Source: Chiloscyllium plagiosum (lineage: Eukaryota). From it: a stretch of DNA of 64,000 nucleotides. Location of the stretch: contig NC_057713.1 in NCBI RefSeq assembly GCF_004010195.1, positions 100,304,075-100,368,074 of the forward strand. The letters run 5' to 3'. The notes beneath the pieces were generated by a model that was given only the letters and a program-made list of their open reading frames with translations, did not search any database and was not told where the DNA came from. A program made the translations under genes and the position numbers. Positions 13,173 through 45,610 of this stretch are shown piece by piece. Every line of letters starts with the position of its first letter. The stretch's first letter is position 1.

Positions 13173-13404
13173 AGGCAAAAGTGAGGACTGCAGATGCTGG
13201 AAACCAGAGTTTAGATCAGAGTGGTGCTGGAAAAGCACAGCAGGTCAGGCAGCATGTGAGGAGCAGGGAAATCAATGTTTCAGGCAAAAGCCCTTCATCA
13301 GGAATGATTCCTGATGAAGGGCTTTTGCCCGAAGCGTCGATTTTCCTGCTCCTCGGATGCTGCCTGACCTGCTGTGCTTTTCCAGCACCACTCTGATCTA
13401 AACC
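13173..13404. mobile_element. Penelope-derived fold-back element with hammerhead motifs
   Basis: Inverted arms of 97 bp (13209-13305 and 13307-13403). TSD CACAGTCTCTTCT at 13160-13172 and 13405-13417. Confidence 0.9.
13307..13342 (+). ncRNA. hammerhead motif with GAAA>GAAG substitution; mirrored minus-strand copy at ~13270-13305
   Basis: CTGATGA-A-GGGC-TTTT-GCCC-GAAG-CGTC. Confidence 0.7.
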
Positions 13405-14659
13405 CACAGTCTCTTCTGCCTAGAAAGACAAGGGCTGCAGATATATTGGAGCACCAATACTTACAAATTTCCCTCCAAGTCACTCACCATCCTGAATTGG
13501 GAATAAATTGCCATTCCTTCACAGTTGCTGGGTCAAAAATCCTAGAACTTCCCAATGTTTGCATGCCTTAAACACATAAAACAAATTGACCGGGATGCAT
13601 CTGTGACCTCCTAACTTATGATAAAGTATCCTCTATGATTCAAAGAATGGATCCTGATGATCAATTAATGATCAAGGCTTACGATCATAGGAAGACCGCT
13701 GTGAGTGTTCTATTAAAGCAGTTGAGGTCAATATGCCAGGTTTCACTTTCGCTCCCCATTCCCACTTCCCCATCTAGTTTCTAGCAGATGCTGGGGGAGG
13801 GGGCTTAAAATTTCCCATTCTGTCCACTCTGTCACTGTAATATTAAGATGTTGATTTTAATCATGAACATGTGTACACTTACTATACATAAAATATTTAA
13901 AAATTATAATGTGTATATATATATATATTTTTTAAGGAGGAATCTAAGATAATAGTGAGGGAAATCAATGTTCCTTCAGGCTATGTTAAGTTATTCAGTG
14001 TGGTGAGGTTCATATTGTATGATGAATCATATAAAGGAGACATTTTTAAAATCTAAATAAATTTCTGTATCTAATGTTTTCATTCTGTTTGGATCTGAGA
14101 CAAGTCCTACCATTAATCATATAATTTCAATTTTCATGGTGAGTCTCCAGTTCATCAATCAGGTATTCTCTTACTTTTCAGTCTGTTGCTATGGTAGTAT
14201 ATTTATTTTGGGAAAAACAAACTAGGAAACCAGACTTACCATTAGGTTCTTTTATTCAAAATAATGTGTCGTCGCTTTCAATGGACTTGGTGACCAAGTC
14301 TCCTTTCCTGCCACTTTTTTTTGCACCATTGCATTGTCACACATGAAGCATTGAATATTGATACGGATGTTTAAGTAATATCTGGGCAGCAGTTAAGATT
14401 TTTGAGCTAAAAGGGAGAAGCTCAGAGAGAACCAGGGAGATCTTTGGATTATTGCTATGCTTAGCATAAGGCAAAGAAGGATCTTTTTTTTCTGAAGCAC
14501 ATTTCACCAATGCAGGACATCCCAAAGTGGTTTACAGACAAAGAGACAGCTGTGGAATGTTCCATTGGATGAAACATACTCCTCTGGGCTTTCTTAAAAG
14601 ATTTCAACAAATTCTGTATTTCGGGCATGAAAATACATTTCATGAGTATTTATAAGACT

Positions 14660-15455
14660 ACAAGATTATAAGGTGTAGGAACAGAATTAGGCCATTTGGT
14701 TCTTCAAGCCTGCTCCACCATTTGATATGTTCTTAACTCCATTCTCCTGCCTTCACCCCATAACTCTTGATCCCTCTACCAATCAAGAATCAATGATCTC
14801 TGTTTGAAATGCCCTCAATGACTTGGCTTCCACCGCCCTGTATGGATTGAGTTCCACAAATTAACCATGCTCCAGCTGAAGACATCCCTCCTCTAAAGGG
14901 TTGTCCCTTCACTCTGAGGCTGTGCCCTTAGATTCTAGCCTCTGCTACTAATGGAAACATCTTTTCCACTTTATTCAGGCCTCTCAGTATTCTGTAACTT
15001 TCAATCAGGTCCCCCTTATCCTTCTAAATTCCACTGAGTACAAATAGAGACAAGCCCTTCATCCCCAGATTATTCTTGTAAACCTCCTCTGGACCGTCTC
15101 CAATACCAGGCAACCCTTCCTGACATGGAGGTCCAAAACAGCTCATAATATTCCAAATGTGGTCTGACCAGAGGCTATACAACCTCTCCAGTACATCTCT
15201 CCTCTTGTATTCTAGCCCTCCTGAAATGAACACTAACATTGCATTTATTGTCCTTACTACCAACTGAACCTGCATGTTAATCTTAAAAGAACCCTGAACT
15301 AGACTCCTAAGGTCCTCTATGCTTCATATTTCTAAAGCCTTTCTTCGTTGAGAAAATAGTTTCCACTAACATGCATCACTTCACACTTTTCCACATTATA
15401 TTCCATCTGCTCGTTCTTTGCCCACATTCCTAGCCTGTCCAAGTCCTTCTGATAT
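14660..15455 (-). mobile_element. CR1 3' fragment
   Basis: ORF track shows DLDRLGMWAKNEQMEYNVEKCEVMH and GGLEYKRRDV; CR1 3' UTR near 14670-14760. Confidence 0.9.
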
Positions 15456-15659
15456 TCATTACACCCACAACTGCTGTTGCATAATTTATAGCTCAGAAAT
15501 ATGCAGAGATAACAGTCCAGCTGCTGCACAAAGTTAACATTGATTCAAAATTCCGACTCCATGTTGCTCCCAACACTTCTTACAGTTTCTTTCCTTTCCT
15601 CTCAGTCTGAATCCAGGCTTAACTAATTAAGACTCAGCTAATAAAACACAGATCAATTA

Positions 15660-17090
15660 ACTAATACAGCTCCAGCTATACAAGACCCTGGTTAGTTCAC
15701 TCCTGGAATACTGTAAGCAGTCCCAGGCATCCATCTTCAGAAAAATGTATTGGTGGTCGAGGGTGTGCAGTGTAGATTTACCAGAATTATACCTGAACTC
15801 CTCATGTTTAGCTACAAAAAAAATTAAACAAAATAGGATTATATTCCCTGGAATTTAGATGATAGAAAGGAGATCTGATTAAAGTTTTCAAGATATTAAA
15901 GGAAACTGATAGAATAGATAGGATCAAACTATTTTCATTTGTTGGGGAGCTTGGGCCTGGGAGAGTTAGTGTAAATATTAGAGCAGAGCCTTTTTTAAAA
16001 GAAACTGTACCCAAACCATTAATTGATTGATTGATTGATTGTCATGTGTACTGAAGTACAGTGAAAAGCTTTGTTTACAAGCAGTACAGGCAGATCAGAG
16101 TAAGCAAGGATGTAGAGATCAGAGGTTGTACAAAGACTTAGACAGAGGCATACAGATTACATTGCACAGAGCATGCGTTGCTGAGATCAGCATTAGCAGG
16201 ATCAGCATTATTTGATTCTAGAGAGTCCTTTCATCAGTCTAATAACGGCTGGGAAGAAGCTGTTCCTGAACCTGCTGGGGATTGTGTTCAGTCTTCTGTA
16301 TCTTCTGCCTGATGGAAGAGGTTGTAGGGGATCATTACCAGGGTGTGATGGGTGTTTGATAATGTTGGCAGCCTTTCTGCGGCAGCAAGTTGTGTAAATG
16401 GAATCCATGGATGGAAGGGTGGATTCTGTGATGGTCTGAGCTGTGTACACCACCTTCTGTAGTTTCTTATGGTCCTGGACTGAACGTTACCATACCAGGC
16501 TGTTATGCACCTGGACAGTATGCTGTCAATCGTACATCTGTAAAAGTTGGTGAGGGTCGTTATGGACATGCCAAATCTCCTGAGTCCCCTGAGAAAGAAG
16601 AGGCATTGTTGTGCCTTCGTGACTGTCGCAGCTATGTGGGAGGTCCAGGACAAGTTGTCGGTTATCATTACTCCAAAGAACTTGACAGTGTCCACCCTCT
16701 CAACCTCAGTTCTGTTGATGTAGATGGGAATGTGTTCTCCTTTTTTTTTCTGCTGTATCCAGATTATGATAATGTGTTGATCAAAGCGCAGAACAGTTCA
16801 TGAAATTGATTGTTTCTGCCAAATACAACAAAAAGAAAATTGGAGCCAGATCTTTAGGAGTCAAATTAGGACATTCTTTCTTGCATAATGGTAGTAGAGA
16901 TTTAGAACTCTCTTGAACAAATAGCAGTCAATTTTAAATCTGAGATGTATACATTTCTGCAAACTCAAGGTATTAATGAATATGGGAGGAATGAGGATAG
17001 GTAAAGTTAGGTCACAGATCAATAATGATCTCATCAAAAACAGATCAGGCTTGAGGGTTGAAATGGTCTCCGCCTATTTCTAGATTTCTA
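15660..17090 (+). mobile_element. old CR1 3' fragment split by a Rex1/Babar insertion
   Basis: CAGCTATACAAGACCCTGGTTAG (LQLYKTLV) at 15672; the element resumes after ~16760 and runs to a CR1-type 3' UTR. Confidence 0.6.
16020..16745 (-). mobile_element. Rex1/Babar LINE 3' fragment
   Basis: ITDNLSWTSHI...AQQCLFFLRGLRRFGMS...FYRCTIDSILSRCITAWYGN and LPSGRRYR...SFFPAVIRL; (TCAA)n tail at ~16022-16040. Confidence 0.9.
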
Positions 17091-18073
17091 CAGGAACAAC
17101 ACGAAATGTAGGAAGTAATTAATTCCTGGAACACAGTTTCTGCCTGAAATAAGCAGAGCACTGAAGACACTAAAGTAGAAACTCTGAAAGTGACATTAAT
17201 TTTAATGGATAATGGTCATCACATTTTATTCAATAAAATCAAATGCCCATTTTAAACATTGATGGCTTAAATATTAGGGATTGTATCACCTTCAAGGCAA
17301 TGATTGTTAATAATCTAATACTACTCCTGAGATACTTTTCTCTCTTAATTTCACTTAACACTTACGTCTTAAAATAAAATTCATTCCAATTTGTTTTCGT
17401 GAACTTCCATCTGAAAAGGTGACCAGATTTCCTATAGTAAATCCTGACTCAGCTCCCTACCATGGAACCTCTACCTTGAGAAGCGAATGGTGGAGGTGGG
17501 TGACTCATGAAAGAAATGTTGAAGTGGGGGAGATCTTAGCTTTCGAGTAGGACTAGGAAGATGTTCCCTTGTTGGTTAAAGATGTAAATGTTATGGAGCC
17601 AAGCTGATTCAATGTAGTTAAGGTACGAAACACAATCAGGTTGTTGATCAGGTTCAAGAATCTGTATGGCCTTCTCTGTTCCTATGTTCCATCCCAAAGA
17701 GAAAATTACCCATTCTGAGTCGATTCCAAACCTGATTCCATTTTGTCCCAGAATGTCTAGAGTGTGAAAGCAACGGTGGATTTATAGGTTATTTTTTCAG
17801 CTACTGCTTCCACAACTTCTATTTCAACATCAAGCAAGCAGTGGAACAAAATATATTCATCTTTCCATGAGGCTCTTTGCAGCCTTTAAATCTCAACATC
17901 GAGTTCAACAATTTCAGATAATAATCACCGGCCCCATTTCCTCTGACAGCAGCTATTGGTGTTTATTCTGTTAATCTCATTTCCACCTCTCTCGGCCCAT
18001 TTTCTGTGCATTTACCTATTCCTTGACCACATGACCATCTTCTTTCCTCTTGAACCGTCATCTGTGTTTTCAT

Positions 18074-18366
18074 TTAGAATCCCTGCAGTGCACAAAGAGG
18101 CTATTCAGCCCATTGAGTCTGCACCAAAGAAATCCGACCCAGACTCAACGCTACCGCCACACCCCCAACCCTGTAATCCCACATTTACCATGGCCATTCC
18201 ACTTAACCTGCACATCTTCAGACTGTGGAAGGAAACCAGAGCACCCAAAGGAAACCCACACAGACACTGGGAATGTGCAAACTCCACACAGACAGTTACC
18301 CAAGGCTAGAATGGAACCCAGGTCCCTGGCACTGTGAGGAAGCAGTGCTAACCACTGAGCTATCAC
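18074..18366 (-). mobile_element. HE1-type shark tRNA-derived SINE
   Basis: Reverse complement of the GCTCAGTGGTTAGCACTGCT head, V-domain GTTTGCACATTC and GGGATTCTA tail. Confidence 0.9.
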
Positions 18367-18484
18367 CTTCCAACCTATCACTGACCTACCCTACTGCTCA
18401 TTCTTCTCCCTCCTCCCTTTCCCAACTTCAGTACCTGCTGCAATATTATTACAGCTCTAGCTTTTTTCCTGTTGAGATTAATGT

Positions 18485-18590
18485 CATAGATCAGAAAGAT
18501 TAATTCTATTGCTCTCTCCACAGATGCTGTTTGAGCTGTTGAGTATTTTTGTACTTATTTCAGGCATCTGCACTATTTTGCTTTTGCAAT
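18485..18590 (+). mobile_element. old Penelope-derived pLTR 3' fragment
   Basis: CTCTCTCCACAGATGCTG...GCATCTGCAC is homologous to the arms of the hammerhead elements. Confidence 0.55.
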
Positions 18591-19379
18591 AAATGTAAAT
18601 TTTGTTTGGTCTGCAACAATCTGCCAAAGGGATTTTTGCAACAGCTAAACACTTGGGTATTCGCCAGATATTGACTAAATACTTCTGCTGCCTAACAAGT
18701 TCCCTGCCTATTTCACTTGGATCACATTCAACCTGAAAGATGAGAAGGCAGAGAGGCAGTCAGTTGAGAATTAGCTAAATAAAGCTACTCGTGACTACCA
18801 TCTCATCCAGGCAAAGCCTGATCTCTACCACTCCAGCACAACCAATGAATGGCTTCCAACCCCATGGGATTTATTACAGTTCTTTTGCAAGTTTTAAGAG
18901 AGTTATAGCTCTTGAATGCCACAGATATGAGTGAGTTATTACGGTCTGTCAGCTTTGTGATAGAGGGCCTACAAAATACTGTCATAACTGGACTGCCCTT
19001 GGAGCTTGTAGCTGAAGCACTTCACCAAGTCAGATTTGAAAGCTGCTAAATTTTGTAACAAGCTGCACACATGAGCCTTTTATTATCCAGAAGTGCTCTT
19101 ACACACAACAGAACATCATTTCTCCCCCATCACCAAATCACCTGTGGTGCTTTTTTTCATCTATTAATCACCACCATTAAATCACCCATGTTTCCAATTG
19201 AATAATTTATATGCAACGCTCATTAAGGGCAATCAAACTATCTAAAGTGAGGGACAGGTAAGGAGAAGGGAGGGGGCTAATCAATACAGAGCTGGAGCAC
19301 ACATAAAGCTTTACCTACTCTGGTTAATCAGATTCTTCTTGCATGTGACTTGCTTTGCTGAAAATCACTTGTAGTTCAA

Positions 19380-19770
19380 TAAGTAGCTCTGAAATCAGAA
19401 TGTTCTGGATCAAGTCCCAGTCCAGACACTCCTACACAAATTTAAGCTGATATACCCAGTGCAGTATTGAGAAAGTGCTGGTTGTGCCATCATTTTCAAA
19501 TACTAAACCAGCTACTCTTACTTGTGGAAGTAAATAATCTCAGAATTATATTTGAAGAGGAGTGAGGGAGCCCTGCATAGTGTCCTGACCAATATTCTTA
19601 ACAAAAATGGATGATCTGCTTTTTTATCATATTGCTTGCTGTGTGCAAGTTGATTGCCATATTTCTTGAAACATGCCTACACTTTAACGTTAATTAATTC
19701 ACTGTTAAGCACTTTGGGATTGCCTGAGGCTGTGAAAAGAGCTATATAAACAGAAGTCCTTTCTTTTGTA
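19380..19770 (+). mobile_element. ancient Deu-type SINE with L2-like tail
   Basis: Head CTCTGAAATCAGAA...TCAAGTCCCA; tail AGCACTTTGGGAT...GCTATATAAA. Confidence 0.65.
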
Positions 19771-20163
19771 AAAAGCATTACCCATGTGTGCTATGAAATT
19801 CCAACATGTTCTGTTATCTACAAAAGAACTTGAGAGAACTCAATGCTGAAATTGTCATTATTTCCAGCCTAGGACAATTCAATATAACGTTATCTCTCTT
19901 TCTGGCCTCCCAGATTTATGTGGTGAATCTTCCATGTTTTTAAGGCATCATGCTCCCTAACATATGAATTGTGAATTGCGGCCCAGATCAGAGGCTACAT
20001 TGTTGATTTTCTGGTTGCAATATAGTACCTGCTTTATGCCTACAACGCACTGCTACCAAGGGCCAGCCTGACCATCCAGGCAAACTAGGTAGGTACATAC
20101 GATCCAAGTCGTTAAGGGACACTAAATTAGCTGCCAGTGAAGGAGTGAACTTTTAAAGATAAA

Positions 20164-20268
20164 GGTCTGAAGAAGAGTCATACTGGGCTCAAAACATTAA
20201 TTCTTTTTCTCTCTCCGCAGTTATTGCCAAACTTGCTGAGTTTCTCCAGCACTTTCTGTTTCTGCTTT
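20164..20268 (+). mobile_element. old Penelope-derived fragment with decayed hammerhead
   Basis: CTGAAGA-A-GAGTC-ATACTG-GGCTC-AAAAC, followed by the pLTR tail CTTGCTGAGTTTCTCCAGCAC. Confidence 0.7.
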
Positions 20269-20469
20269 AAAAGTCAGATATAATTCTAGACTCCTTACTT
20301 CTCTCCATATGGAATGTGGGTTGGGTGTGGGAGAGGAAGCAAAGTCATAATTCACCTGGGGTGCCGCAAACCCATGCTGCCAACATTGAAATGATGCACC
20401 ACGCCAAATACTTCCTCAGGTTCCGGCTAGGATGGAGATTCAAAGCTGCATGGAAATTCTGTGGCCCAT

Positions 20470-20660
20470 TTCAATTCCATTCAATTAGCTTTATTGTTAC
20501 ATGTACTCAAATGAGTACAGTGAAAAGTTTACAGTCGTCACATTACAGCGCTATCTGAGGTATAAATGTACCTAAGTCCAGATACTTAAGATCATATTCT
20601 TAGGAAACAAAAAGACAAATTAGAAAAGTAAAGAAATAAATAGGTTAGGCCAGAAGTCAC
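20470..20660 (-). mobile_element. 3' end of a non-autonomous retroposon sharing the Rex1/Babar tail
   Basis: TTTATTGTTACATGTACTCAAATGAGTACAGTGAAAAG resembles the tails at 16040-16070 and 42960-43000. Confidence 0.65.
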
Positions 20661-21034
20661 ATCAATCCCCTTCCCCACATTATGGGCAAAATTTGAATTT
20701 CTCCCCCAATTTGGATACATGCCGAATTCCTTCATCTTTGTCCTTTCAAGGTAAGTATGATGTTAGTGTGTGTGTGTGTATTTCACACTTCTTCCACAGG
20801 CTATATAACCAACAGTTAAATGAAACAGCAGTGGGAAAATGAAGGAAGGTTAAGAATAGATTTAAATTGATAAAGGTGTTTGAGAGGTTAGATAGGGAGA
20901 AATTAATTCCTCTCGTGGGGAAGTTTAGAAAAGGAGACATCACCTTAACATTAAAACAGTCCCATCCAAGGGTGATATCAGGAAACATTTCTTTCACACA
21001 AAGGACAACTTGGAACTCTTTCCTTCAAAAATGT

Positions 21035-21515
21035 AATGGATGCTCCCTACTTGTCTGGATGAATGCAGCTCCAATACTGCTCAAGAAATTTGACACCACC
21101 CAGGACAAAGCAGCCTGCTTGTTTAGCACCACAAATATACACTACCTCCACTAATAACACTCAGTAGCTACAATGTGTGCTACCTACAAATGCACTGCAG
21201 AACTTCACTAAGAATCCTTAGACAGCACCTTCCAAACCCATGACAATTTCCATCTAGAAGGACAAGATCAGCAGATACATGGGGCACCACCACCAGCAAG
21301 TTCCCCTCCAAGTCACTTCACCATCCTGACTTAGAACTATATCATCGTTCCTACTGTACCGTTAGGTCAAAGACTTCTTAATGACATTGTGAGTCTGCCT
21401 ATAGACATGGATTGCAGTGGTTCAAGAAGGTAACTCACCATGACCTTATCAACAGCATTAGAGACCAGCAATAAATGCTGGCCAGCCAGCGATACCCGCA
21501 GCCCACCAATGATTT
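21035..21515 (+). mobile_element. non-LTR retrotransposon 3' fragment (CR1/L2 group) inserted in a CR1 remnant
   Basis: Translates to LVWMNAAPILLKKFDTTQDKAACL; 3' UTR CAATAAATGCTGGCCAGCCAGCGA. Confidence 0.8.
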
Positions 21516-22495: not shown

Positions 22496-24030
22496 TAGAA
22501 CATAGAACATAGAACGTTACAGCACATTACAGGCCCTTTGGCCCTCAAAGTTGTGCCGACCCACGATATTAATCTGATGCCCATCTAATCTTCACCGTTC
22601 TATTATTATCCATATGTATGTCCAATGCCCATTTAAATGCCCTCACTGTCGACGAGTCTACTACTGTTGCAGGCAAGCCGTTCCACGCCCCTACTACTCT
22701 CTGAGTAAAGTAACTATTCCTGATATCTGTCCTAAATCTATCACCCCTCAATTTAAAGCTATGTCCCTTCATGTTAGCCTTCCCCATCCAAGGAAAAAGG
22801 CTCTCACTGTCCTCCCTATCTAACCCTCTAATTATTTTATACGTCTTGATTAACTCACCTCTCAACCTTCTTCTCTCCAACAAAAACAGTCTCAGTTCCC
22901 TCAGCCTTTCCTCGTAAGACCTTCCTTCCATGCCAGGCAACATCCTAGTAAATCTGCTCTGAGCCCTTTCCAAAGCTTCCACATCCTTCCTATAATGCAG
23001 TGACCAGAACTGTGCTGAATTCTCCAGGTATGGCCTTACCAGTGTCTTATACAGCTGAAGCATGACCTCTTGGCTCTGAAACTCAATCCCCCTACCAATA
23101 AATGCAACATACCATATGCCTTTTTAACAATCCTATCAACCTGGGTGGTAACTTTCAGGGATTTGTGCACCTGGACACCGAGATGTCTCTGTTCATCTAC
23201 ACTACCAAGAATTTTACCATTAGCCCAGTACTCTGCATTCTTGTTACTTCTTCCGAAGTGAACTACCTCACAGTTTTCCACATTAAACTCCATTTGCTAC
23301 TTCTCAGCCCAGCTCTGCATCTTATCTATGCCCCTCTGTAACCCATAACATCCTTTGGCACTATCTACGACTCTACTACCTTAGCGTCATCTGTAAATTT
23401 ACTAACCCATCCTTCTACGCCCACATCCAGATCACGTATAAAAATGACAAACAGCAGTGGCCCCAAAACAGATCCTTGCGGCACACCACTGGTGACTGAG
23501 CTCCAGGATGAACATTTCCCATCAACCACCACCCTCTGTCTTCTTTCAATTAGTCAATTTCTGATCCAAACCGCTAAATCCCCTTCAATCCTGAAACTCC
23601 GTATTTTGTGCAATTGCCTACTATGTGGAACCTTATCAAACATCTTACTTATACACCATATCAGCTGCTTTACCTTCATCCACCTATTTTGTCACCTTCT
23701 CAAAGAACTCAATAAGGTTAGTTAGGCATGACCGTGTTGACTATTCCTAATCAGATGATTATAAATCCTATCACTTATGAACTTTTCCAGCACCTTACCC
23801 ATAACTGAAGTAAGGCTCACTGGCCTATAATTACCAGAGTTGTCCCAACTCCCTTTCTTAAATAAGGGAACAACACTTGCCATCCTCCAGACTTCTGGCA
23901 TTACTGCTGTCGACAATGATGACATGAAGATCAAAGCCAAAGGCTCTGCAACCTCTTCCCTGGCTTCCCAGAGAGTCCCATCTGGCCAGGGGTCTTATCT
24001 ATTTTCAGATTTTCCAAAATTGCTAAAACC
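22496..24030 (-). mobile_element. 5'-truncated CR1 LINE with internal deletions
   Basis: NYRPVSLTSV, FNVENCEVVHFG, LQLYKTLVRPYLE and RRLRGELI; (TAGAACA)n tail at 22496-22516. Confidence 0.95.
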
Positions 24031-24124
24031 TCCTCTTTGTCATCCGCAATGCCATCCCAGCCTAATGCCCCAGGACCGGCAGTGGAGGTCACGGCACTAG
24101 ACCATACCGGCCTGCTCCAATCTT

Positions 24125-24311: not shown

Positions 24312-24418
24312 GTTACCATCTGGGTTAGAGCATTCTCAGCCATCTGGAGAATGTAAGAGAAAGATTAATTACGTTATCCACTCTGCCATCTTCTCTCCAA
24401 TACGCCATACTCACTCTG

Positions 24419-24520
24419 GTGCTGGAAAAGCATAGCAGTTCAGGCAGCATCCGAGGAGCAGGAAAATCGATGTTTCGGGCAAAAGCCCTTCATCAGGAAT
24501 ACAGGCAGAGAGCCTGAAGG
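24419..24520 (-). mobile_element. single-arm Penelope-derived insert with hammerhead motif
   Basis: Minus strand CTGATGA-A-GGGC-TTTT-GCCC-GAAAC-ATC. 16-bp TSD (14/16 match) at 24403-24418 and 24521-24536. Confidence 0.85.
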
Positions 24521-26175: not shown

Positions 26176-29100
26176 CTTTAAGAAGAAGCTGCAAAGAGCG
26201 TAGGGAAGAAAGTAATCGACAGAGATGATGATGTGGTGAAATGAATGAGGCTGAGGTACAACAGAATTACCGGCAAGGACCAGTCAAGCTGAATGTTTTA
26301 TTTCTGTGTTGCAGAGTCAAAATAATTCAATGTAAGTTGCAGCATTGACAATGTCTGAGATGCTATGGGAGGTATGAAATGTGATGCAGCTCATCCTAAT
26401 TATATACATTTTGCCTGAACCACAATTTTAGGACAGCCTCAGGTCCATGATCTCTATGTTCCAAAATCAGAATTAAGGGAGATCAGCAAAGGGCCTTTTG
26501 AAGGTATGCTGAAGCTTAGAATGAGTTTTATACTACCACTTAAAAATTTACCCTTTTGGCTTTTAAGTAATGTCAATTTTATACCATTTTCAATGAAAAA
26601 AATGATTCAGATAGCATTTTTGCCTTGTCTCTTGCAACCAGATGTTAAGGTTTAATGAGTTTCCCCAGCCGATTCTATGTGAGTGACTGAAAAAATACAG
26701 AGAGGTGAGAGCAAGAATGCTGTATGATTCTCATTATTAAGAAACTGAAGTCACTTTATAGTTGCTGCAGAGATTAATTATCTCCAGTGTAAGAAGTGAA
26801 AACCATTGATTGTTCAGGAATTTGAGCCATAATTAGTTAATAAACTATCTGTTACAGCTGATTATGACATCCCTGAACTAAAGAATTGCAGGCTCCAGTC
26901 TCACAGCATATAGAATTGTTGAGGGCTAAATTTGGCGTATGAGTAAGGAAAAGCTGCATTATCAGTGACAGAGTTCTGAGAAGGTTGCAAATGTTTCTCG
27001 CACGTGTGGCATATATGAGGTACTTCACTGTCACTCATCAAGTCTGGTTCTCCCTGAGCTGTGAACTCAAGAATTATTAACTTCTCTTATTAATATTTTA
27101 AGATGTCAAACTGAGACCAATGCAGAAAAAAAGGAAATAAATAACTTGCATATTTATTGCACCTCTCACATCCTCAAGACACCAATGAAACATGTTCGGA
27201 GTGTAGTCTCTGGTGTAATGTAGGAATTACAGCAAGACTCAACAAATAGCGCAGAACATATTGATTCAGTGATGTTGGTAAACGAATGAAGCAACAGAGG
27301 CTAGTGTATCTAAGAGGCCACATGCATCATATACTATTCATGTAATACTGTGCTGTGGCTCACAATTATCCCCCAAGTGTGGGATATAACACACTAAATA
27401 GTGTGTACCACACACTAACTCCACTGTTTGAAAGACAGCTATATCAGCTTAACCCATATGGGAAAATACAACTTGAATCTATTTACAGATTAGGAAATAT
27501 ATAGAATCCAGATGTACATTGTGAGAAGGAGATGAGAAGTTGAAACTTTGTGTCTTTAACTCATCAATTAACAGAATATTTGATCTTTATCACATTTCTG
27601 TTTGTGAGATTTTGCTTTGTACCAATTGACTGTTATGTTTCCTACATTAGAGCACATATCATTGGCTGTAAAATGCTGGCAAGTCCTGAAGTCATTAGAG
27701 GTGATATATAAATGCAAGTTCTCTTTCTTTCCTCTTTGTAACTTACCTTCTCTACTAACAAGGAGGAAAGAATTTCAGCAGCAAGAGGAAAAGCATTTTC
27801 TTGCTGTTGACTTACAGCAAATTATGTGAGTCATTTGGATCATCCTCATGCAACAGTCCTAATAAGTAACACATGTAATGATTGTTTCCCATTTCATTGC
27901 TAACATAACCATCATTAGTATTTTCTGTTCCCTACAGCCTCAGCGAAAGTCATTTAAAATTGGATTGTTACGAGACAGAATAACAACAAACTTTTATTTT
28001 TGCAAATTTCTACTCAAATAAGAAGCTGTTTCAAAGAGATGACTCATTAAGATGGGAGAAGAGTGAACAGCAGCATTGGAGCTGGAAAGGAAAATGGAGA
28101 GATAAGGGTAGGGAGGGCAAACCACTTTTAAAGAGCAGATCCATTGTGAGTTTCAAAATCAAATAATAACGTGAAAGGGAAAAAGCTGCATGATGACAGA
28201 ATCATAACGGCTGATACGATTGTTTCCATCGGTGGAATTGAGGAACTAAAGACAGAAATAGCCAGACAACACATGATGAAGGACTGCATGCTCAAATAAG
28301 GTGAGCCAATGCCGACTGGAGATTTGAAAGAAACAGATAATAATTTTGGAACTAACTTACTGAGACATACAATTGGTAGGGATTGGACATGGGGACGGTA
28401 ATAGTAGATATGGCCCTTTTGACTTGTGAAAAAGCAGAAAGATTATGTCATTTTAACTTTTACCGTTTGGAAATGAGCAGAAAATAAATGACTTTTTCCA
28501 TCCCAAGTTTTGGAATGAACATTTAAACAAGAATTCCTTACAGGACTAGACCAGGATGATTCATTTAAAATATTGCCCTGAACTATTGCCCTAAGTGCCA
28601 AGTTGTTGCAATTAGTCAAGACAAGAGCAGAGTTCACCTCCTCAACAATCAATGGACCTCCAAGTTAGTGGTCTACTGGATTATAATCATTGGTGATTGA
28701 CAAAGACTTCTGACTGGATCAATGAGGATTCTTCCCTAGCTTCTAGTTCTGTCAGAGTAAAAACTAGCTGAGATTTCCTCCAACACTGAATTACCTTGTC
28801 TCATATTTGGCAGATTTACCAATACGCGAAATAAAAACAGAAAATGCTGGAAATATTCAACAGGTCTTGCAGCTTCTGTGGAGACAGAAACAGAGTTAGC
28901 ATTTTGAGTCAAAGATGGCTCTTCTTCAGAACTGAGGGAGATAAAATGTGATGGAATTTATGGAATACTCCAGGAAAGAGGAGGATAAACAAAAGGAAAT
29001 TGAAGACATGTGTCTCATTGTTGCATCTGGAAATTTTGAAACCATTACACTTTGAAATTCTGTTCTGGACAGATTCCAGTACTAGGTTGATTTAGGATCT

Positions 29101-29298
29101 AAATAATTGCTTGGTAATACTGAAATTAAACATTGTCAATAGGAGATAAGAAGTTGAAGCTTACATTCTTACATACACCTGGACTAGGACAGGAGAAATA
29201 GACTTGAACAAAGGGGCAAAAATGTATACAGCATGAGAAAAGGGTGCTAATTGGTTGGGACATCATTGGCATAGATATATGGCAAGAACAGTTAACTG

Positions 29299-29510
29299 GG
29301 GAGAAAGTGAGGTCTGCAGATGCTGGAGATCAGAGCTGAAAATGTGTTGTTGGAACAGCGCAGCAGGTCAGGCAGCATCCAGGGAACAGGAGAATCGATG
29401 TTTCGGGCATAAGCCCTTCTTCAGGAATCCTGAAGAAGGGCTTATGCCCGAAACGTCGATTCTCCTGTTCCCTGGATGCTGCCTGACCTGCTGCGCTGTT
29501 CCAGCAACAC
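29299..29510. mobile_element. Penelope-derived fold-back element
   Basis: Inverted arms of 84 bp centred on 29427 with 2 mismatches. TSD CAAGAACAGTTAACTG at 29283-29298 and 29510-29525. Confidence 0.92.
29425..29462 (+). ncRNA. intact minimal type I hammerhead ribozyme
   Basis: GAAUC-CUGAAGA-A-GGGC-UUAU-GCCC-GAAAC-GUC-GAUUC gives a 5-bp stem I, a 4-bp stem II and a palindromic ACGU stem III. Predicted cleavage is after C29457. Confidence 0.85.
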
Positions 29511-30109
29511 AAGAACAGTTAACTGTCAAGTTCAATTTTCAGACTAGGCAGGTAGACACTGATTGGTCAGGGTGTTGCTATGGGAATGCAGCAGAAATTG
29601 GCAATCTCCATTCCTTTATTTTCTCCATGAACCCTGTATTGATGTATGGAGCCTACATATCTCTTAGCATAATCTGGATTATTCAATAAATGTTTTCCAA
29701 TTGAAGAATTCAATCTGATGGTGGTCATGTTCTTCTGAGACTTGGAAGCATGAATTGATTGAGTGTGATGAGCATGCTGCCAACTGTGAATGATCAGTGA
29801 AATGTATAATTTTACACAGTCCACCAATTGTTGGCATATTACCTGTATAACAGGCATCACATTGGCACTGAGAATCATATTTCATTTTATGCATTTATGC
29901 AATAGGAAAAATAACTTTTTAGCTAGAAGGCAGCATCCAGTTACTGAAGAAAGTACTCATCTTTATTGCAAGGTAGCAGCGGGAGGTGACTAACTTCACC
30001 CCATTGTTCAAACCTTTGAACCACCTTCCATTCAGGGTTATCTGAGATAGACTAGACACTGTTCAATGCTAGAAAGTGGTTTACATAGCTCCTTTTAATG
30101 TATTTTTGA

Positions 30110-37359: not shown

Positions 37360-37500
37360 AGAGGATGACATTCCTGATGAAGGGCTTTTGTCCGAAATGT
37401 CAATTTCCCTGCTCCTCGGATGCTGCCTGACCTGCTGTGCTTTTCCAGCACAACACTCTTGACTCTAATCTCCAGCATCTTTGTCCTCACTTTCGCCCAC
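37360..37500 (+). mobile_element. single-arm Penelope-derived insert with hammerhead motif
   Basis: CTGATGA-A-GGGC-TTTT-GTCC-GAAA-TGTC at 37374-37401. 12-bp TSD-like repeat (11/12 match) at 37348-37359 and 37501-37512. Confidence 0.85.
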
Positions 37501-37735
37501 CTCCTCTTATTAGACTACCAAGAAGGTGTACTCTATCACACTGGTCCAAACATATCCTATAGGTATCTACGCTGAAAAACAATGGTGGCAGTAAACCCAC
37601 CAGATGAATCTTGCACCATTGATGTGCTGTAGTGAGGATTCATCTTAAGGACTCAGCTGTGAGCCTTAATCTGTCTTTGGGATCATCTGTCCTTTTAAAT
37701 GGTTCCCTCTGCAATCCATTACATGCAGTGAATGA

Positions 37736-37946
37736 GTTGAAAAATGTGGTGCTGGAAAAACACAGCAGCCCAGGCAGCATCCGAGGAGCAGGAGAATCGA
37801 CGTTTCGGGCATAAGCCCTTCTTCAGGAATGCTTATTCCCGAAACGTCGATTCTCCTGCTCCTTGGATGCTGCCTGGCCTGCTGTGTTTTTCCAGCACCA
37901 CATTTTTCAACTCTCGTCTCCAGCATCTGCAGTCCTCACTTTTCTC
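37736..37946. mobile_element. Penelope-derived fold-back element (mirror orientation)
   Basis: Inverted arms join at 37830/37831. TSD CATGCAGTGAATGA at 37722-37735 and 37947-37960. Confidence 0.92.
37794..37830 (-). ncRNA. hammerhead motif with intact core
   Basis: AUUC-CUGAAGA-A-GGGC-UUAU-GCCC-GAAAC-GUC-GAUUC; stem I has a U-U mismatch. Confidence 0.75.
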
Positions 37947-38089
37947 CATGCAGTGAATGACCCTTTATCCAGGAAGTTGGTACAAGGCTGAATTAGTTTA
38001 TGGGATTTGACCCAGGATAGCTGAATCCAGAAGAGGAGAACTTAATCCCAGAAGTGATAATCTCACCAAATGCAGATGAGAGATGTGGG

Positions 38090-38405
38090 CAATCCTTCAG
38101 CAGCTTCCTCCAAACCCATAATCTTGACCACTCAGAAGGACAGGGACAGCAATTGCATGGGACTGCCACCTTCAAAATCCCCTTGAAGCCACACACCATT
38201 CTGACTTGTAGACTATATAGCTGTTCCTTTACAGTTTCTGTGTCAAGATCATGGAACGCCATTCCTGACATCACTGTGAGTGTAACTACACCATATGATT
38301 TTCAATTCTTCATGACAATGGCTCTTCACCACCTTGTAAAGGGTAATTGAGATGAACAACAAATGATGGCCTTGCCAATGGGACACATGTTCTTGAATGA
38401 ATAAG
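38090..38405 (+). mobile_element. CR1/L2-group 3' fragment
   Basis: Homologous to 21215-21510. Confidence 0.75.
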
Positions 38406-39845
38406 ATTTTAAAAAATGCATCTTTTTATCACATGAATATTATAGCAGACAGTTACAGTCCCAGACAGACTTCCAAATGTTTACAGGCCTGTTGCTATTC
38501 CAATCTGCTGAGATTTTAGAGGAGGTGGTGAGAAATGAGAACTGCAGTTCCTTGAATCACTATGCTTTGATAAATCTGTTCTGGCTGGCCTCTCCCACTT
38601 TGCACTTTTGATAAACTTGAGATCATCTAAAACTCGTGTTGCTCATGTCTTAGTAAGGACCAAGTCTCATTTCCGAGTTATTTATATACTCGCTGACCAA
38701 CATTACCAACCAGCAGTGCCTTGATCTTAGTTCCTAATTTTTTTTTGTTCATATCTGTTGACCATCTTGCTATCTAATCCTGCCTCCTCCAGCCTCACAA
38801 GCCTCCAAGGATATCTGAATTCTCCAATTCTGAACCCTTGAACAGCTCTGATTTTAATCAATCCTGTATTGATGGCCATGCCTCCAACTGCTTGAGCTCT
38901 GAGATCTAGAATTGCTTTCCTAAATCTCTCCACTTCTCACCTCCTTCAGGATGTTCATTGAAACCTATCACATTGACTAAGATTTTGGTCACCTACATCT
39001 CCTTATGCAGCTTGAAGTCAAATTTTGATTCTTCTGAAGTCAGTGTAAAGATCCAGAAAAGGCTCATTCAGCTGATTGCTGGAATGGGATGTTATTTTAT
39101 GATGGAAAGTTGGACAAGCTGTGACTGGTTTTCCTGGAGTTTAGATGTGTAGCAGCCTCATGGCTGCTAAAACACAAGTAGGTTGCCAAATTGACAAAAC
39201 AGCAAGGGATGCGGGGTATGGGAGACATTGACCAAGAAAAGCTCTGCAAATTGCAAAACCTAAAACTACACACAGTGCAAACATAGCAGCCAAGTGCTAA
39301 TGACATTAGCGTTGTGTAAAAGGACACTTCTTGTCAACAGTTATGCTGGACACACATATCCCCAACAATGTCAATCAAATAAAAGAGGAATGCATATATT
39401 CTGCCAAAAACCAAACAAAAGGGCAGCCTGGCCCTGCTACACAAAGAAACAAACATTAACAAGCCATGCAAACAAATGACAATGTTCGGAACCATTAAGC
39501 GAGTTCACCAGTACTATAGAAAGTTCCAGAAAACCATCAAAAAAAAGCATATAAATGGGGCTTACCTGCACATCAAACTCTTGGGCCTTCTGGAGGTGAA
39601 GGTGCAGACTGACTGACCACCTAGAGTGAGAGGGACAGAGGACAACAACTTCACAAACCCGACTTCAGTTACAAGAGACTCTGGAAACTGTTGTACGATT
39701 GAGGGGATCGGGTGGGATTAGGAATACTTTCTTTAGTATTAAAGTCTTGTTCTTAAAAAATGTTGCAACAGTTTGTGTCCAACTTGTGTCTATAGGGATT
39801 TGACTGTTCTGGTCTTGTGGGATACCTGGGTATACCTGGTGAAGG

Positions 39846-39972
39846 ATCACCTGATGAAAGAGCGTCGGTCCGAAAGCTAATGTGCTTCCAATTAAACCTG
39901 TTGGACTATAACCTGGTGTTGTGTGATTTTTAACTTTGTACACCCCAGTCCAACACCGACATCTCCGAATCA
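39846..39972 (+). mobile_element. second Penelope-family pLTR end with hammerhead motif
   Basis: CAC-CTGATGA-A-AGAGC-GTC-GGTCC-GAAA-GC-TA followed by AAACCTGTTGGACTATAACCTGGTGTTGTG. Confidence 0.75.
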
Positions 39973-40734
39973 TAACTAATAGAGCAGACTTGAGGAACAC
40001 AATGGCATGATCCGATTTTTTATCCTTGTCTTGTTTCATGAAGAACTTTGGGAAGTTTTATTCCATTAAAGGTGCTATGTGAATACATTTTGTTAAAATC
40101 ACAAATTGTCAGAGAGCCTGGGCAAATGAATTGGAATGTTATGCATGGTATAAGAGACTCATGATGCTGTTGCTCTATTTACAATATGTGCTTACGTCTG
40201 GTGAAGCTGTGAACAGAGGTTGGAGTCTCTCCTCCTGCCTTGTACATGCCCAGGCAGCTGTGAGATTCAGATTTGTGCTATGTTTGACTTCATTGTGTGC
40301 AGGTAAAAGTAAGTGCTTTGTGAAATGATTGCTTTATTGTATGCTTACTGTTATGCAACATGTCCTTGAGCCTTTTGCTTTTCATTGCATTCTCTAGCTG
40401 GTGAAGTATTCACATTTTCATTCGTGGTTTTAAAGATTTGAAAACATTTCTCTGAATTGTCATTTTATCCTAAATTTTATACAAGAAGATAATTACACAT
40501 TCCTTTTCGCATGTTTCCGAGTTTCAGTGCTTTATAATGTCAAATTGCTGGACAAAGACAGTCAGTTTCTACTGAATTAAATATGCTGCCCACCCACTTA
40601 GTGATGGAAATGTACACAAAATATCTAGTTCCTTGTTGCTTTGGTTTTAACACATAAAAATGCAAAGCTTGTAGGATTGATAAGTACCGGTAAGTTCACA
40701 GAAAATGCAAGGGTCCAGAAGGGAGATATTTGTG

Positions 40735-41125
40735 TGCTTTGTTCAGGTACAGTAGACGCATACTTGCCTCTGGGTCAAATAGTGCAGATGTTGACCTATT
40801 ATTTGGATTGAAAATCCTGTGTTGCACTACCAAAGCTGCCATCGTTCTAACAAAACTGAGGCCCCATCTACTTTCTCAGTTGGATCTAAAAAACCCCATG
40901 ACAATATTTGAGGAAGTGCAGTGTGTTCTTCTCCCTATCCTGGCCAACACTTCAACTTCAACATGATTGTTGCTGATTGTCTCGTCACTGCCATACTGCT
41001 GTTCGTGAGAGCTGATTGGTGAATTGGCTCCATCTTTTCTGCATTATAACAGGAACTGCATTACAAAAGTAGATTTCATTGCTGTGGGTCATCCTAAGGT
41101 TGTAAACAAAGCTACAGGAAATGCA
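40735..41125 (+). mobile_element. Deu-type SINE
   Basis: CTTGCCTCTGGGTCA head, CTGAGGCCCCATC, ATATTTGAGGAAG and TCCTGGCCAA. Confidence 0.6.
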
Positions 41126-42084
41126 ACAAAAAAACTGAAGAAAAATTCTACAATTACTAGAAATCTGGAATAAAAACAAAATAATGGTGAAAATACTTAG
41201 CAGTTTAGGCAGCATTTGAAAGAGAGAAACTGAGTTGCTTGATAGAAACGTAAGACTTTCTTTTTCATTCGTGAGTTGTTGTCCTTCAATTTAAATTTAA
41301 AATGCCCTTTCCTAATTTGTTACAGAGTCGTCTTCATTAAGTCTGCTTTTCCAACATGTTTATTTGAAATTTAAACCGCCTGTATTTCATTTCAACCAAT
41401 GATCATCAAGATTTCTCCTTCTCCCCAACAACTTGAGGTGTATGGCAGATTTTAGCTCTGCAATTAGAATTACAGAGAGCTTTAAAATATTATTTGACAA
41501 ATAATTGCTGGCAAGTTTGCCTTTGCCTGAAACCATTTGTGTTCCTGTTTAGAATCTGCTTTTACAGTTAGGTGCATTGGGAATTTTACCACAGTAATTG
41601 CACGCATCCGTCTGCACTGCTTAGGGAAATCAATGTAAAAGATCCCATGACACTATTTGAAGCAGAGCAGGAGAGTTCTCCTCTGTGTCCTGGCCAATAT
41701 TCATCCTTCAACCACCATCACTAAAATAGAGGGCCCAGTTAAGATGACATTACTGTATGTCGGAGCTTGCTGTGTGTAAATTGACTACCATAATCCCTAC
41801 ATTATAACAGTGATTATGGTTCATTGGCTGGAAAGGACTTTGGGATGTCCTAAGACCATGTATAATAGCTAATTCTTTCTCTGTTCATTCAGTTCCTGGT
41901 ACCTCATTCCAAAGTTATTGTGGAGAGATTCTAATGAAGCTTTAAAGAAACAGAGGGAGGAGTGCCAGACCATATGTCCATGTTCCACCTGTGTCTTTAA
42001 GATTTTCAAATAAAATACCTATTAAGTAAAGAATTGCCTAGAATTTTACCACAGTCGTTGAAAATTCTTACAATAGGATATGTA

Positions 42085-43005
42085 TTCCACCCCCTCAATA
42101 TTACTTATATGCTCACGACGTGTGGCCAAATTCCACACCAACTCCATTTACAAATTTACTGATGACATCACTATCGTAGGTCATATCTCAAACAACAATG
42201 AGACAGAATACAGGAAAGAGATTGGGAGCTTATTGACATGGTATAAAGACAAAGATCTCCCCATCATTGTCAGCAAAGTGAAGGAGCTGGTCATTGACTT
42301 CAGAAAGTGGAGTGGAGGACATGCCCCTATCTACATCAATGATGCTGTTGGTGGAGAGTGTCAAGTTCCTGGGAGTGATGTTGACCAACAATCTAATCTG
42401 GTCCACTTACGCCGACGCAATGGTCAAGGAAGCACAATGGCGTCTCCACTTCTTTAGGGAGCTAAGGAAATTTGACATGTCCACAAACACTCTTACCAAT
42501 TTTTATAGATGCATCAGAGAAAGCCCCCTATGCAGGTACATCACAGGTTGGTATGGCAACTGCTCTTCCCAAGACTGCAAGAAACAATAGAGTTTCATGA
42601 ACACAGCTCAGTCAATCATACAACCCAGCCTTCCATCCATTGACTTCATCTATCCTTCCTGCTGCCTCAGGAAAGCAACCAACATAATCAAAGCTGCCTC
42701 CTACCCCAGTTATATGGTCTTCCACCCTCTTCTGTTGGGCAGAAGATATAAACATTTGAATCCATATTTGAACAGATTCAAGAAACACTTCTTCCCTGTT
42801 GTTATCAGACTTTGGAACAGACCTCTCAATTGTTAATGTCGATCTCTCTCTCTCTCTCTCTGCACCTTCTCTGTGGCTGCAACACTATATTCTGTACTCT
42901 GTTCTACTATCCTGAAGCATTTTGTATGGTACGATCTGCGTGATTAGCACACAAAACAACACTTTTCACTGTATCTTGGTACATGTGACAATAATAAATC
43001 AAACA
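42085..43005 (+). mobile_element. Rex1/Babar LINE 3' half
   Basis: IYKFTDDITIVG, KVKELVIDFRK, FYRCIRES and FFPVVIRL; tail GTACATGTGACAATAATAAATCAAA. Confidence 0.9.
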
Positions 43006-43108
43006 AGCATTAATAAAGTTGAAGTTGAAACTTATGTAAAATAGATAATTTTATATGTTGAGGGAGCAAGGGGAGCTACTGATGTATTATTGTTATAGTG
43101 CACATAAC

Positions 43109-43418
43109 TGGGTGGCACGGTGGCTCAATGATTAGCACTGCTGTATCACGGTATTAGGGACCTGGGTTCAATTCCACTCTTGGGCAACTGTCTGCATGGG
43201 TTTCCTCCAGGTGCTCCAGTTTCCTCCCACAATCCAAAGATGTGCAGGTTAGATGTTTTAGCAATGCTAAATTACCCATACTGTTCAGGGATGTATAGGT
43301 TAAGTGTGTTGGCCATGAGAAATGCAGGGTTACAGGGTGGCAGGGGTGGTGCTCTTTGGAGGGTCAGTGCAGACTTGTTGAGCCAAATGGCCTGTCCCCA
43401 CAATGTAGGGATTCTACA
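43109..43418 (+). mobile_element. HE1-type SINE
   Basis: GGGTGGCACGGTGGCTCAATGATTAGCACTGCTG...GGGTTCAATTCC...TGTAGGGATTCTA. Confidence 0.9.
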
Positions 43419-44697
43419 GAATGCTTTTGCCTGTGGGTTCATATGCTCTAATAGGTTAGACTGTAAAAGGAAGTTTTTCTGATACTTTACAGGGCTTTAG
43501 TGTTTCTTTGATGCATGTGAGGTATTGTGTACTGCTTTGTGCTTCTGATTTAAAAAGGGATATACTCAGCTTAAAGTTGTTTGTCAGATTGACTCCTGGG
43601 ATGAGAGGATTTATCATTAGACAAATTTGAGCCTATTATGTTCCTTGGAGTTCAAAAAAATTGAGAGATAAACTTAATGCAATCAGATGCTTTGCAGTGT
43701 CAATGCTGAGAGGTGGTTTCCTCTGCTGGAGAGTATAAAACATGGGGACATAATCATAAGTTGTCCATTTAGGACCAAGCTGAAGAGAATTCTTCTTCAC
43801 TCAGACTTTTGTGATGCTTTGGAATTTTCTACCCCAAACAGCAGTGAACGATACTCAGCTGATGTATAATTTAAACACAGAATGCCTGAAACATTGGCTT
43901 TGTTTTTCTCACCACACAGGCTACTTGATCCGCTGAGGATTTCCAGCATTTCTGTTTGTTATTTAACTGATTTTGTTATCTTGCAAGTAGCCTCCTGGTG
44001 GCTTTTGTTTGCAGAAGGTTATCTATTAATACACTCTGTCTATAAAGAAATCAGCACTTTATGGGTTAAATATGTTACTAAAGTCAGCAGTATTTACCAT
44101 CAGACCTTGATTTCAAACAGAAGGATAAGAAGGGAGGAGAAGCCATTTTGATTTATTGCTGTGCTAATTAATTTAGTTTAGATAAACTCATTTCCGTTTG
44201 TTCGCAGTGGGATGTAATTTCAGCTGTGCCTCGGGAGACTTTCACATCTGGCTCATATTTCAGCTTTGAGGCTCCTGCTCTTTATCCTCCTCTAACCCTG
44301 TTCTGATCACTGTTTTAGGTATTACAACGGCTAACCACCACTGACAAGAAAATTGAAATATAAATTTAATGGCTTTGCCAGTACAGATTAGATGTGGTGA
44401 TGGCTGGGAGCCAGAACTGCCTGCCAGAAGAAAATCTAGCTCCAAAAGCCTTCTTCTGTTTAAGAAAGTATTTCTACACCTCTTCCCACATTGAATCTGG
44501 AAGGTTCTGGAGCTCATTAGTATTCTTCTGTTAAACGGAGGAAGAATGTATGTTTATATTGCACCTCCTGAGAGCTTGGGACACCCCAAAGTTCCTTTCA
44601 GCCAATTAAATACTTCTGAAATGCATTTGCTGTTGAAATGTAAGAAACCCAGTCATCAATGCAGTGCAAGATCACACAGTAGAAATCAGTTTCTTTT

Positions 44698-44810
44698 GAG
44701 ATACAAAAAGAGAGGCTGCTAGAAAAGCTCAGCAGATCTGGTGGCAACTGTGAAGAAAAATCAGAGTTAACATTTCGGGTCCGGTGACTCTTCCTCAGAA
44801 TGCTGAGGAA
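44698..44810 (-). mobile_element. Penelope-derived pLTR with hammerhead motif and short fold-back
   Basis: Minus strand CTGAGGA-A-GAGTC-ACCG-GACCC-GAAA-TGTT. Hairpin TTCCTCAG-AATG-CTGAGGAA at 44791-44810. Confidence 0.8.
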
Positions 44811-45420
44811 CATATGTAAGACATGTTCCAGGAATGCAGCATCTTTGAACTCCCCCGAGAGGGCAGCTGGTTGGATTGGAGCCAGCATCTGTTGACCTCA
44901 TGCAGTTGTCTTCCATTGATATGCTGCTTTTCTCTCCCAAGAGTCCATTTGTACACCTTATTTGTGAGAGGCTTGAGCCAGTCATAATCTCAATTACGTA
45001 TTGGCCACCCCACCCACCTTTCAGTCAGAAGATCGATTAGTCATCTTGTTCTATTGCCTGTTAAAACGTACTGTTTTAGCTTCCGAATTTTGCTTTACAT
45101 ATGGGTCATAAGGTCACATTACACTTCCCTGTCAACATTAGCAATGTTTGGATTCAACATTTGCAATCAAGAAGTGTCCTTGGCAGAGGGAGTTACTGGC
45201 TGAACAGCCCCGGAAAATACAATGGGAACTTTCCTTGTTGACAGAGAGAGGGTGGGGAGCGGTTGGGAATGAAAAAGAGTTAATCCTATAACATTTAATA
45301 AATTTCTTCAGAGTTTACAAAATTATGATGTCATAATTTCTTGCAAGTTGTAGAAATGATTTATGAAGCTTACTCCAGCAACGAGGGCCTTCACTTACAT
45401 GAATGGATTGGAGAAGTCTA

Positions 45421-45610
45421 TAATAAAAACCTAATCTGTCAGAGAAACTCAGCAGGACTGGCAGCATCTCTGGAGCAGGAAACAGGTTAGTGTTGTGAGT
45501 CCAGTTTGACTCTTCTTCAGAACTGTTTTTCTCTCCTCAGGTGCTGCCAGACCTGCTGAGTTTCTCCAAAACTTTGTTTTTATTTTAGATTTCCAGCATT
45601 TACAGTATTT
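45421..45610. mobile_element. older Penelope-derived fold-back element
   Basis: GAGAAACTCAGCAGGACTGGCAGCA is inverted relative to TGCTGCCAGACCTGCTGAGTTTCTC. Minus strand CTGAAGA-A-GAGTC-AAACTG-GACTC at ~45497-45520. Confidence 0.75.

Follow-up and report, generated by a model that had tools for sequence, protein, structure and literature searches.

Hammerhead-bearing stubs of Neptune-type Penelope-like elements in a shark genome share a 5′ boundary that probably marks a capped RNA start

The 64,000-nt window analysed here (Chiloscyllium plagiosum, contig NC_057713.1, positions 100,304,075–100,368,074 of the forward strand, part of a 3.56-Gb genome) contains short loci in which two copies of a hammerhead ribozyme unit stand head to head, together with solo copies of the same unit. 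These are stubs of Neptune-type Penelope-like elements (PLEs) with 5′ ends concentrated at an initiator-like A, and we think it likely that reverse transcriptase (RT) primes the element's leader at two fixed sites, one per nicked strand, and runs off the capped 5′ end of the RNA. The question addressed is how one-tailed head-to-head PLE repeats originate and what role the hammerhead plays. An earlier note on the window had read five loci as diverging inverted pairs of PLE pseudo-long terminal repeats (pLTRs) that always turn at the 5′ edge of the ribozyme. Coordinates below are window positions, and element numbering takes the C of CUGANGA as +1.

The shared motif is a minimal type I hammerhead, as that note had recognized: CUGANGA, stem II, GAAA, a palindromic core and a short stem I. 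The stems covary in families A, B and C (65, 17 and 9 copies scored, the family C set including some misassigned copies); family A stem II pairs are kept in 60–65 of its 65 copies, and stem I variants across the families are UC/GA, CAC/GUG and GUU/AAC. Standard hammerhead numbering predicts cleavage after +28. An Rfam scan matched no hammerhead family and gave only below-threshold microRNA (miRNA) models. One subfamily with near-intact open reading frames (ORFs; 3′ pLTRs of loci L142, L144 and L154) has a perfect 4-bp stem I, unlike the most numerous subfamily, which has a U-U mismatch there. Hammerheads described from known PLEs likewise have a short stem I, a bulged base before stem II and a palindromic ACGU or AGCU in place of helix III (PMC4209133).

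Longer family A copies run upstream through a pyrimidine-rich untranslated region (UTR) into a GIY-YIG endonuclease (EN). A C-x4-CxxC linker stands beside GIY-YIG at L009 and L141, and at L141 an RT and EN frame without stops is followed by the family A pLTR unit (Pfam RVT_1, E 4.9e-08; GIY-YIG, E 3e-04, just under the Pfam cut-off). A CX2-5CxxC linker between RT and EN is a PLE motif as given in PMC8557442, and by this motif the parent is assigned to the Neptune-type, EN-containing (EN+) PLEs. The closest named relatives of the family A EN come from carpet sharks and a ray, and one relative of 902 aa carries RT plus GIY-YIG. Two partial tandems, L161 and L167, continue from EN through 3′ UTR, hammerhead and tail into the next ORF, with its ATG ~160 nt after +1, so that the hammerhead unit serves as both 3′ pLTR and 5′ leader. 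The Penelope-like origin proposed earlier is borne out by this arrangement, and L141 gives the link to an autonomous PLE with the matching pLTR, which the note had wanted identified. Its remark that none of the loci encodes protein is correct for the stubs in the window, which are nevertheless pieces of a coding element. Nowhere among the loci examined did we recover a young element that is intact over its full length and has both pLTRs. The EN preceding the family B unit is a different one, which we assign by its 29% identity to the family A EN over 68 aa, a 112-aa piece of it having given no Pfam match.

The distribution of 5′ ends was determined in 28 blocks, each 50 kb long and placed at a round-number coordinate (1.4 Mb in all, including 45 kb of N). 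A search with 15 natural long references gave 215 arms, 206 after de-duplication. Removing 17 that lie against N or an edge, along with 11 cross-hits from family C, left 178, and the scoring took in arms that begin no later than +50. Ninety-eight of the 178 begin between -10 and +10 and 50 between -6 and -1, with modes at -4 and -3. Half of the arms still running at -6 to -1 end there (50/100), a hazard of 0.083/nt compared with 0.002–0.006/nt from -21 to -700; the hazard already rises at +10 to +1. Because the flanks of short arms match upstream element sequence in only 4 of 121 cases, this peak is not a reference gap. The breakpoint is therefore non-random, as claimed, but ‘always’ was too strong: 43 of the 178 arms run upstream of -10 and 37 upstream of -20, and both arms run past -30 in at least 5 of 43 pairs. 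At the predicted cleavage site we looked for a peak and found none (hazard 0.008; 4/178 arms at +28 to +30).

The same boundary is seen in copies that continue into the ORF. Of 39 such copies (the best 40 hits minus the query), 36 could be scored: 15 begin at -4 to +9, two of them as G|ATTC, 9 extend upstream as tandems (the reference included), 5 begin at +17 to +58 and 7 later. Since ORF-bearing copies begin there too, the boundary is probably a property of the autonomous RNA. An apparent family B peak at -3 (8/62) was set aside as mostly mismatch to the single reference used. Each Mb of the sample has on average ~144 arms of family A and 32 pairs (43 over 1.355 Mb). Extrapolated to the genome, this gives roughly 5x10^5 family A arms and 10^5 pairs, in agreement with the very high abundance foreseen from the window.

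The boundary lies at an initiator-like A that follows a TATA or TATA-like box by 30–32 nt; family A has this A at -4, family B at -8. Long family A copies read ..TCATTC|CUGA, and all 15 of the long references have TTA(T/C)C, placed at -34 or -36; long family B copies have TATAAA ~32 nt before A(-8), and several family C copies have TCAGTT with an AT-rich box upstream. The template base preceding the boundary is C (or T). Across the whole genome, the -5 base before ATTC in family A copies is G in 2397, A in 828 and T in 642 (exact matches to one young subfamily, leaving out G at -6 to guard against one confusion with fold-back), against a background G/A ratio of 0.68 and an internal truncation control at +13 with 48 G and 129 A (Fisher p 6e-37). 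The base before A(-8) in family B is G in 2083 copies and A or T in 448; 155 family B copies have G at the stem I edge. An extra G is described as a mark of capped full-length L1 insertions (PMC11702581), and from the sequence pattern we consider it likely that here, too, it marks the capped start of the element RNA. Thousands of exact junctions would then map the likely transcription start to the base in two lineages as distant as families A and B.

For the recurrent breakpoint the earlier note had suggested RT stalling or template switching. A folded or dimeric hammerhead, or a bound protein, would arrest RT on a long RNA at the outer edge of the ribozyme, and the coincidence of the boundary with the first base of stem I in families A and C, as well as the hazard that is already raised at +10 to +1, could be read in this way. 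RT reaches the 3′ edge of the ribozyme first, however, and the hazard there is low. The G-marked boundary of family B lies 5 nt upstream of stem I rather than at its edge (2083 versus 155 copies), the extra G is absent at the internal truncation site, and folding of the monomer leader is no better than that of shuffles (z 0.67). Stalling is thus a poor explanation that we would be surprised to see upheld. Least probable of the explanations weighed is that a longer capped transcript is processed at the boundary, by splicing to an acceptor there or in another way. One might cite for it the pyrimidine-rich upstream sequence, the AG at -4/-3 of family C and the Penelope intron of D. virilis, reported to end where helix I begins (PMC4209133). 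In families A and B, however, the boundary has no AG before it, and the upstream letters of short copies do not form a shared exon. An AG at -27, tried as an acceptor, is missing from several long family A references and was rejected as not conserved.

The 3′ ends fall into two classes, at about +82 to +97 and at +123 to +127 (the tail), and solo copies share the +82 to +97 end site. Exactly one arm carries the tail in 40 of the 43 sampled family A pairs, neither arm in 3 and both in 0; the one-tail pattern recurs in 10 of 13 family B pairs. Target site duplications (TSDs) of 11–19 bp, with a mode of 14, flank 69 of 164 young events, a set that mixes sampled and search-selected loci. They uphold the retrotransposition that had been proposed, and their varying length does not suit a DNA-transposon miniature inverted-repeat transposable element (MITE) with a fixed short TSD. 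Both 3′ ends share ~2 nt with the TSD (n = 35 and 40), compared with 0.4–0.6 nt under a one-sided null. The arms of one pair agree at 89 of 92 diagnostic sites versus 59% between loci, which fits one template; among rare variants in 50 pairs, 12 are common to both arms and 52 are on one arm.

How the second arm is made can be judged from the arms themselves. A capped-start boundary is also compatible with a fold-back, in which the tail-primed cDNA runs off the RNA, self-primes and copies back to about +90; self-priming has been proposed for PLE palindromes (PMC3846280), the junctions are near-perfect palindromes, and the variants common to both arms also speak for it. Such a fold-back needs the tailed arm to reach furthest 5′. 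Among 40 pairs the tailed arm starts more than 5 nt later than its partner in 22, and the 10 in which it starts earlier and the 8 in which the two are level are the ones that suit a fold-back. At L010 and three more loci, the inverted piece consists of approximately the tail only and adjoins a sense copy ending at about +85 to +90; the piece holds sequence missing from the sense arm, which a fold-back of one cDNA cannot give and priming from both nicks can. Solo copies, moreover, stop at the same +82 to +97 site. We consider a fold-back origin of the second arm unlikely, although it is the strongest of the competing explanations.

For the preferred reading, in which each nicked strand primes at its own site on a capped RNA, the following sequence of steps can be envisaged. 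The unit of hammerhead, +82 to +97 site and tail (+126) is both 3′ pLTR and leader of the next ORF, and the TATA or TATA-like box of the pLTR would direct RNA polymerase II to A(-4) (family A) or A(-8) (family B). The sequence ends near +90 and +126, which share ~2 nt with the target, would be the sites at which cDNA begins; on the leader copy this cDNA would be only 90–130 nt long and would end with the cap copied as an extra base. A protein dimer may prime both strands of a ~14-bp staggered cut, one per site, after which the two cDNA 3′ ends would be joined head to head, so that every insertion makes its hairpin anew. Early stops are frequent in the cDNA primed at the tail, as would be expected of an enzyme trailing on the same RNA. 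The template could be the full mRNA or read-out RNA from promoter-bearing 3′ stubs, the products being identical; the short inserts lack the upstream box and are probably dead ends. More tentatively, and with less than even confidence, we suggest that PLE integration is an obligate twin priming by an RT-EN dimer at two fixed sites of one capped RNA, with the trailing enzyme displacing the first cDNA, and that promoter-bearing 3′ stubs donate ‘strong-stop’ mini-inserts in trans, giving ~10^5 hairpins with an uncut hammerhead at the RNA cap.

The note had offered a further possibility, a mobile short RNA defined by ribozyme cleavage (retrozyme- or MITE-like) whose hairpin is copied whole. The abundance of short arms (135/178, about three quarters) is in keeping with it, the 12 rare variants found on both arms hint at many donors, and animal retrozymes are reported to derive from pLTRs (bioRxiv 10.64898/2026.07.22.740005). 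The cleavage site nevertheless has no peak of ends and the inserts keep an uncut ribozyme; head-to-tail hammerhead arrays were sought in the window and none was found, the units there being solo or head to head. A hairpin copied whole does not account for paired events that differ from one another in ends or junction in 59 of 59 cases, nor a separate family for a unit that is the end or leader of an autonomous element and shares its boundary with ORF-bearing copies. This idea, in both its RNA and its MITE forms, is already largely refuted, and we give it very little weight.

Several observations weigh against the priming of both strands on one capped RNA. The asymmetry of 22 versus 10 is borderline (p 0.05), and later deletions at palindrome centres could blur it. 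The microhomology excess is modest, being measured against a one-sided null, and the in vitro work of Frangieh et al. showed no homology. Arm similarity can also arise from subfamily waves or gene conversion, and tails on both arms in 2 of 13 family B pairs need two templates or a fold-back. Of 30 loci with the G that were inspected, about 7 have a target that matches the G as well, and several a partner arm that does so, which we would explain by a cap-derived C caught by pairing; the 30 include two duplicates and a long copy that has mutated. In family A the box is TATA-like rather than canonical, and in families A and C the starting base is also the first of stem I. A polyA single-cell run (X21) mapped to L278 gave 2578 reads without a pile of starts or ends; 93% of the aligned reads continue into unlike sequence, being mostly passengers in host transcripts. 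A second run, X22, gave no reads on L278. Sixteen polyA reads of X21, from 14 starts, cross the opposite-strand joint at L278:382/393, which shows transcription through one or more fold-back junctions in that sample.

Much of this architecture has precedent. According to PMC8557442 and PMC3846280, EN+ Neptune and Nematis PLEs have RT with a C-terminal GIY-YIG and a Zn-finger-like linker, and share with the shark element partial tandems, an inverted 5′-truncated partner, a junction palindrome and a 30–40-bp tail on one end; TATA and initiator (Inr)-like motifs are noted there in a known PLE pLTR. PMC3846280 and PMC2377424 likewise describe inverted pLTRs, palindromes at the junction, the tail and motifs of Inr type, and PMC4209133 describes close opposite-strand hammerhead pairs in PLEs. 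Unlike the EN+ PLEs so described, the shark copies are mostly 90–130-nt leader stubs with a fixed, G-marked 5′ end. Cleavage and circularization were proposed in PMC4209133, whereas the shark inserts begin upstream of an uncut ribozyme. Animal non-LTR retrozymes resemble the stubs in being non-coding, pLTR-derived and hammerhead-bearing (bioRxiv 10.64898/2026.07.22.740005), but are described as head-to-tail tandems, whereas the shark units are solo or head to head and appear to be rebuilt at each insertion.

The closest biochemical parallel is the anole Poseidon element PAc (PMC11167929), for which two internal RT starts bracketing the tail, cutting and extension of both strands, a predicted dimer and an uncleaved RNA substrate, with the ribozyme not needed in vitro, are described. 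The two classes of shark 3′ ends match those two RT start sites. The PAc ORF starts in stem II and its RT sites lie within the ORF, whereas the shark sites lie in the ~160-nt leader before the main ATG; the shark genomic junctions also show ~2 nt of microhomology, unlike PAc. As far as the available text of that paper goes, no transcription start is mapped, inverted pairs are not explained and later steps are left unvalidated. Young family A copies (e.g. L278:400-480) have a 27-codon upstream ORF running from an AUG in the loop of stem II to a point between the two candidate priming sites; it is in frame with the main ORF in L278 only, and not in L299, L306 or L307, and read-through was therefore rejected.

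L1 twin priming as described in PMC11702581 also yields inversions, discrete 12–18-bp TSDs, second-site microhomology and the extra G. There the first cDNA primes on poly(A) and the two cDNAs cover adjacent, non-overlapping parts, whereas in the shark element both would prime internally, at fixed sites 35–40 nt apart, usually duplicating the same 80–90 nt. Arkhipova et al. derived head-to-head repeats by self-priming on an antisense template; the shark junctions argue for a capped sense template and indicate that cleavage does not set the 5′ end. If the capped-start reading is true, both cut DNA strands would prime copying of the sense-strand RNA at each landing. In the literature outside subscription papers and Repbase/Dfam, we found neither twin priming nor a cap G reported for PLEs, and no mention of these elements from sharks. 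The architecture has been described before; mapping of the cap and an interpretation by twin priming did not turn up in that literature, and a prior description may exist. From family A alone, ~10^5 hairpins of ~200 bp are predicted, with a possible double-stranded RNA load, and such palindromes can be misfiled as MITEs or, given the sub-threshold Rfam matches, as miRNA precursors.

Two kinds of composite locus were seen in addition. Family A arms are joined directly to family B elements at L027:1400-1660 and L116:2200-2400, the A 3′ end sharing homology with B sequence; one element was likely primed on or beside the other. Complex insertions (L005/L006, L121 and L172) contain inverted target DNA, nested inverted pairs or N stretches near palindromes, and the sample counts may miss loci of this kind.

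In the window, four of the five inverted pairs named in the earlier note stand (those centred at 13306, 29427, 37830 and 45522); at ~44800 there is one copy that lacks a partner arm and has only a 20-nt palindrome, and the sequence to its right matches no family copy in 1.46 Mb. Besides these there are five further solo copies (Table 1). The three reported TSDs of 13–16 bp were recovered at 13, 16 and 16 bp, the third with one mismatch; a TSD was sought at the 45522 pair and none was found. CUGANGA cores lie at 13311, 29430 (plus strand) and at 13301, 29424, 37826, 44798 and 45520 (minus strand). The right-arm core of locus 1 (13311-13338) has GAAA mutated to GAAG, and that of locus 2 (29430-29457) is an intact minimal hammerhead. 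The G at 13306 may be either cap-derived or the templated -5 base of the left arm.

Table 1. Element-derived features of the window
Feature	Position	Strand	Details
Solo old family C copy	20163..20261	+	–
Solo family A copy	24417..24519	-	-23 to +80; TSD 14 bp, 1 mismatch
Solo old family C copy	28825..28934	-	–
Locus 1, left TSD	13160..13172	+	13 bp; right copy 13405-13417
Locus 1, family A arm with tail	13173..13305	-	about -6 to +126; +1 at 13301
Locus 1, G between arms	13306	+	directly 5′ of right-arm A(-4)
Locus 1, family A arm without tail	13307..13404	+	starts A(-4)
Locus 1, inverted pair	13209-13305/13307-13403		97 nt, 93% identity
Locus 2, left TSD	29283..29298	+	16 bp; right copy 29510-29525
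Locus 2, young family A arm with tail	29299..29428	-	-4 to +126
Locus 2, young family A arm without tail	29428..29511	+	-2 to +82
Locus 2, inverted pair	29343-29426/29428-29511		84 nt, 98% identity
Solo older family A copy with tail	37369..37498	+	-5 to +126; TSD 12 bp, 1 mismatch
Locus 3, left TSD	37720..37735	+	16 bp, 1 mismatch; right copy 37945-37960
Locus 3, family A arm without tail	37734..37831	-	-5 to +93
Locus 3, late-starting family A arm with tail	37831..37947	+	+11 to +126; without CUGANGA
Locus 3, inverted pair	37734-37816/37831-37913		83 nt, 96% identity
Solo family B copy (second PLE lineage)	39846..39975	+	hammerhead and tail; no TSD found
Solo old family C copy	44700..44810	-	5′ end is 20-nt palindrome 44791-44810 only
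45522 pair, old family C arm	45421..45524	-	starts A(-4)
45522 pair, old family C partner arm	45523..45605	+	without hammerhead; reaches tail-like stretch; end approximate
45522 pair, inverted pair	45421-45485/45523-45587		65 nt, 72% identity

Other sequence in the window includes ORF fragments at 47735-50449, 22569-23123 and 16288-16797 (all minus strand), which from their residues we take to be LINE-like (long interspersed element; CR1/L2-type). A 25-bp tandem repeat occupies 1-5464 (218 copies, 84% matches, strong G skew) and produces long spurious minus-strand ORFs. At 62718-63563, on the minus strand, a 281-aa frame without stops contains two hydrophobic stretches and is probably an exon of a host membrane-protein gene, in or near which the hairpins of the window may lie.

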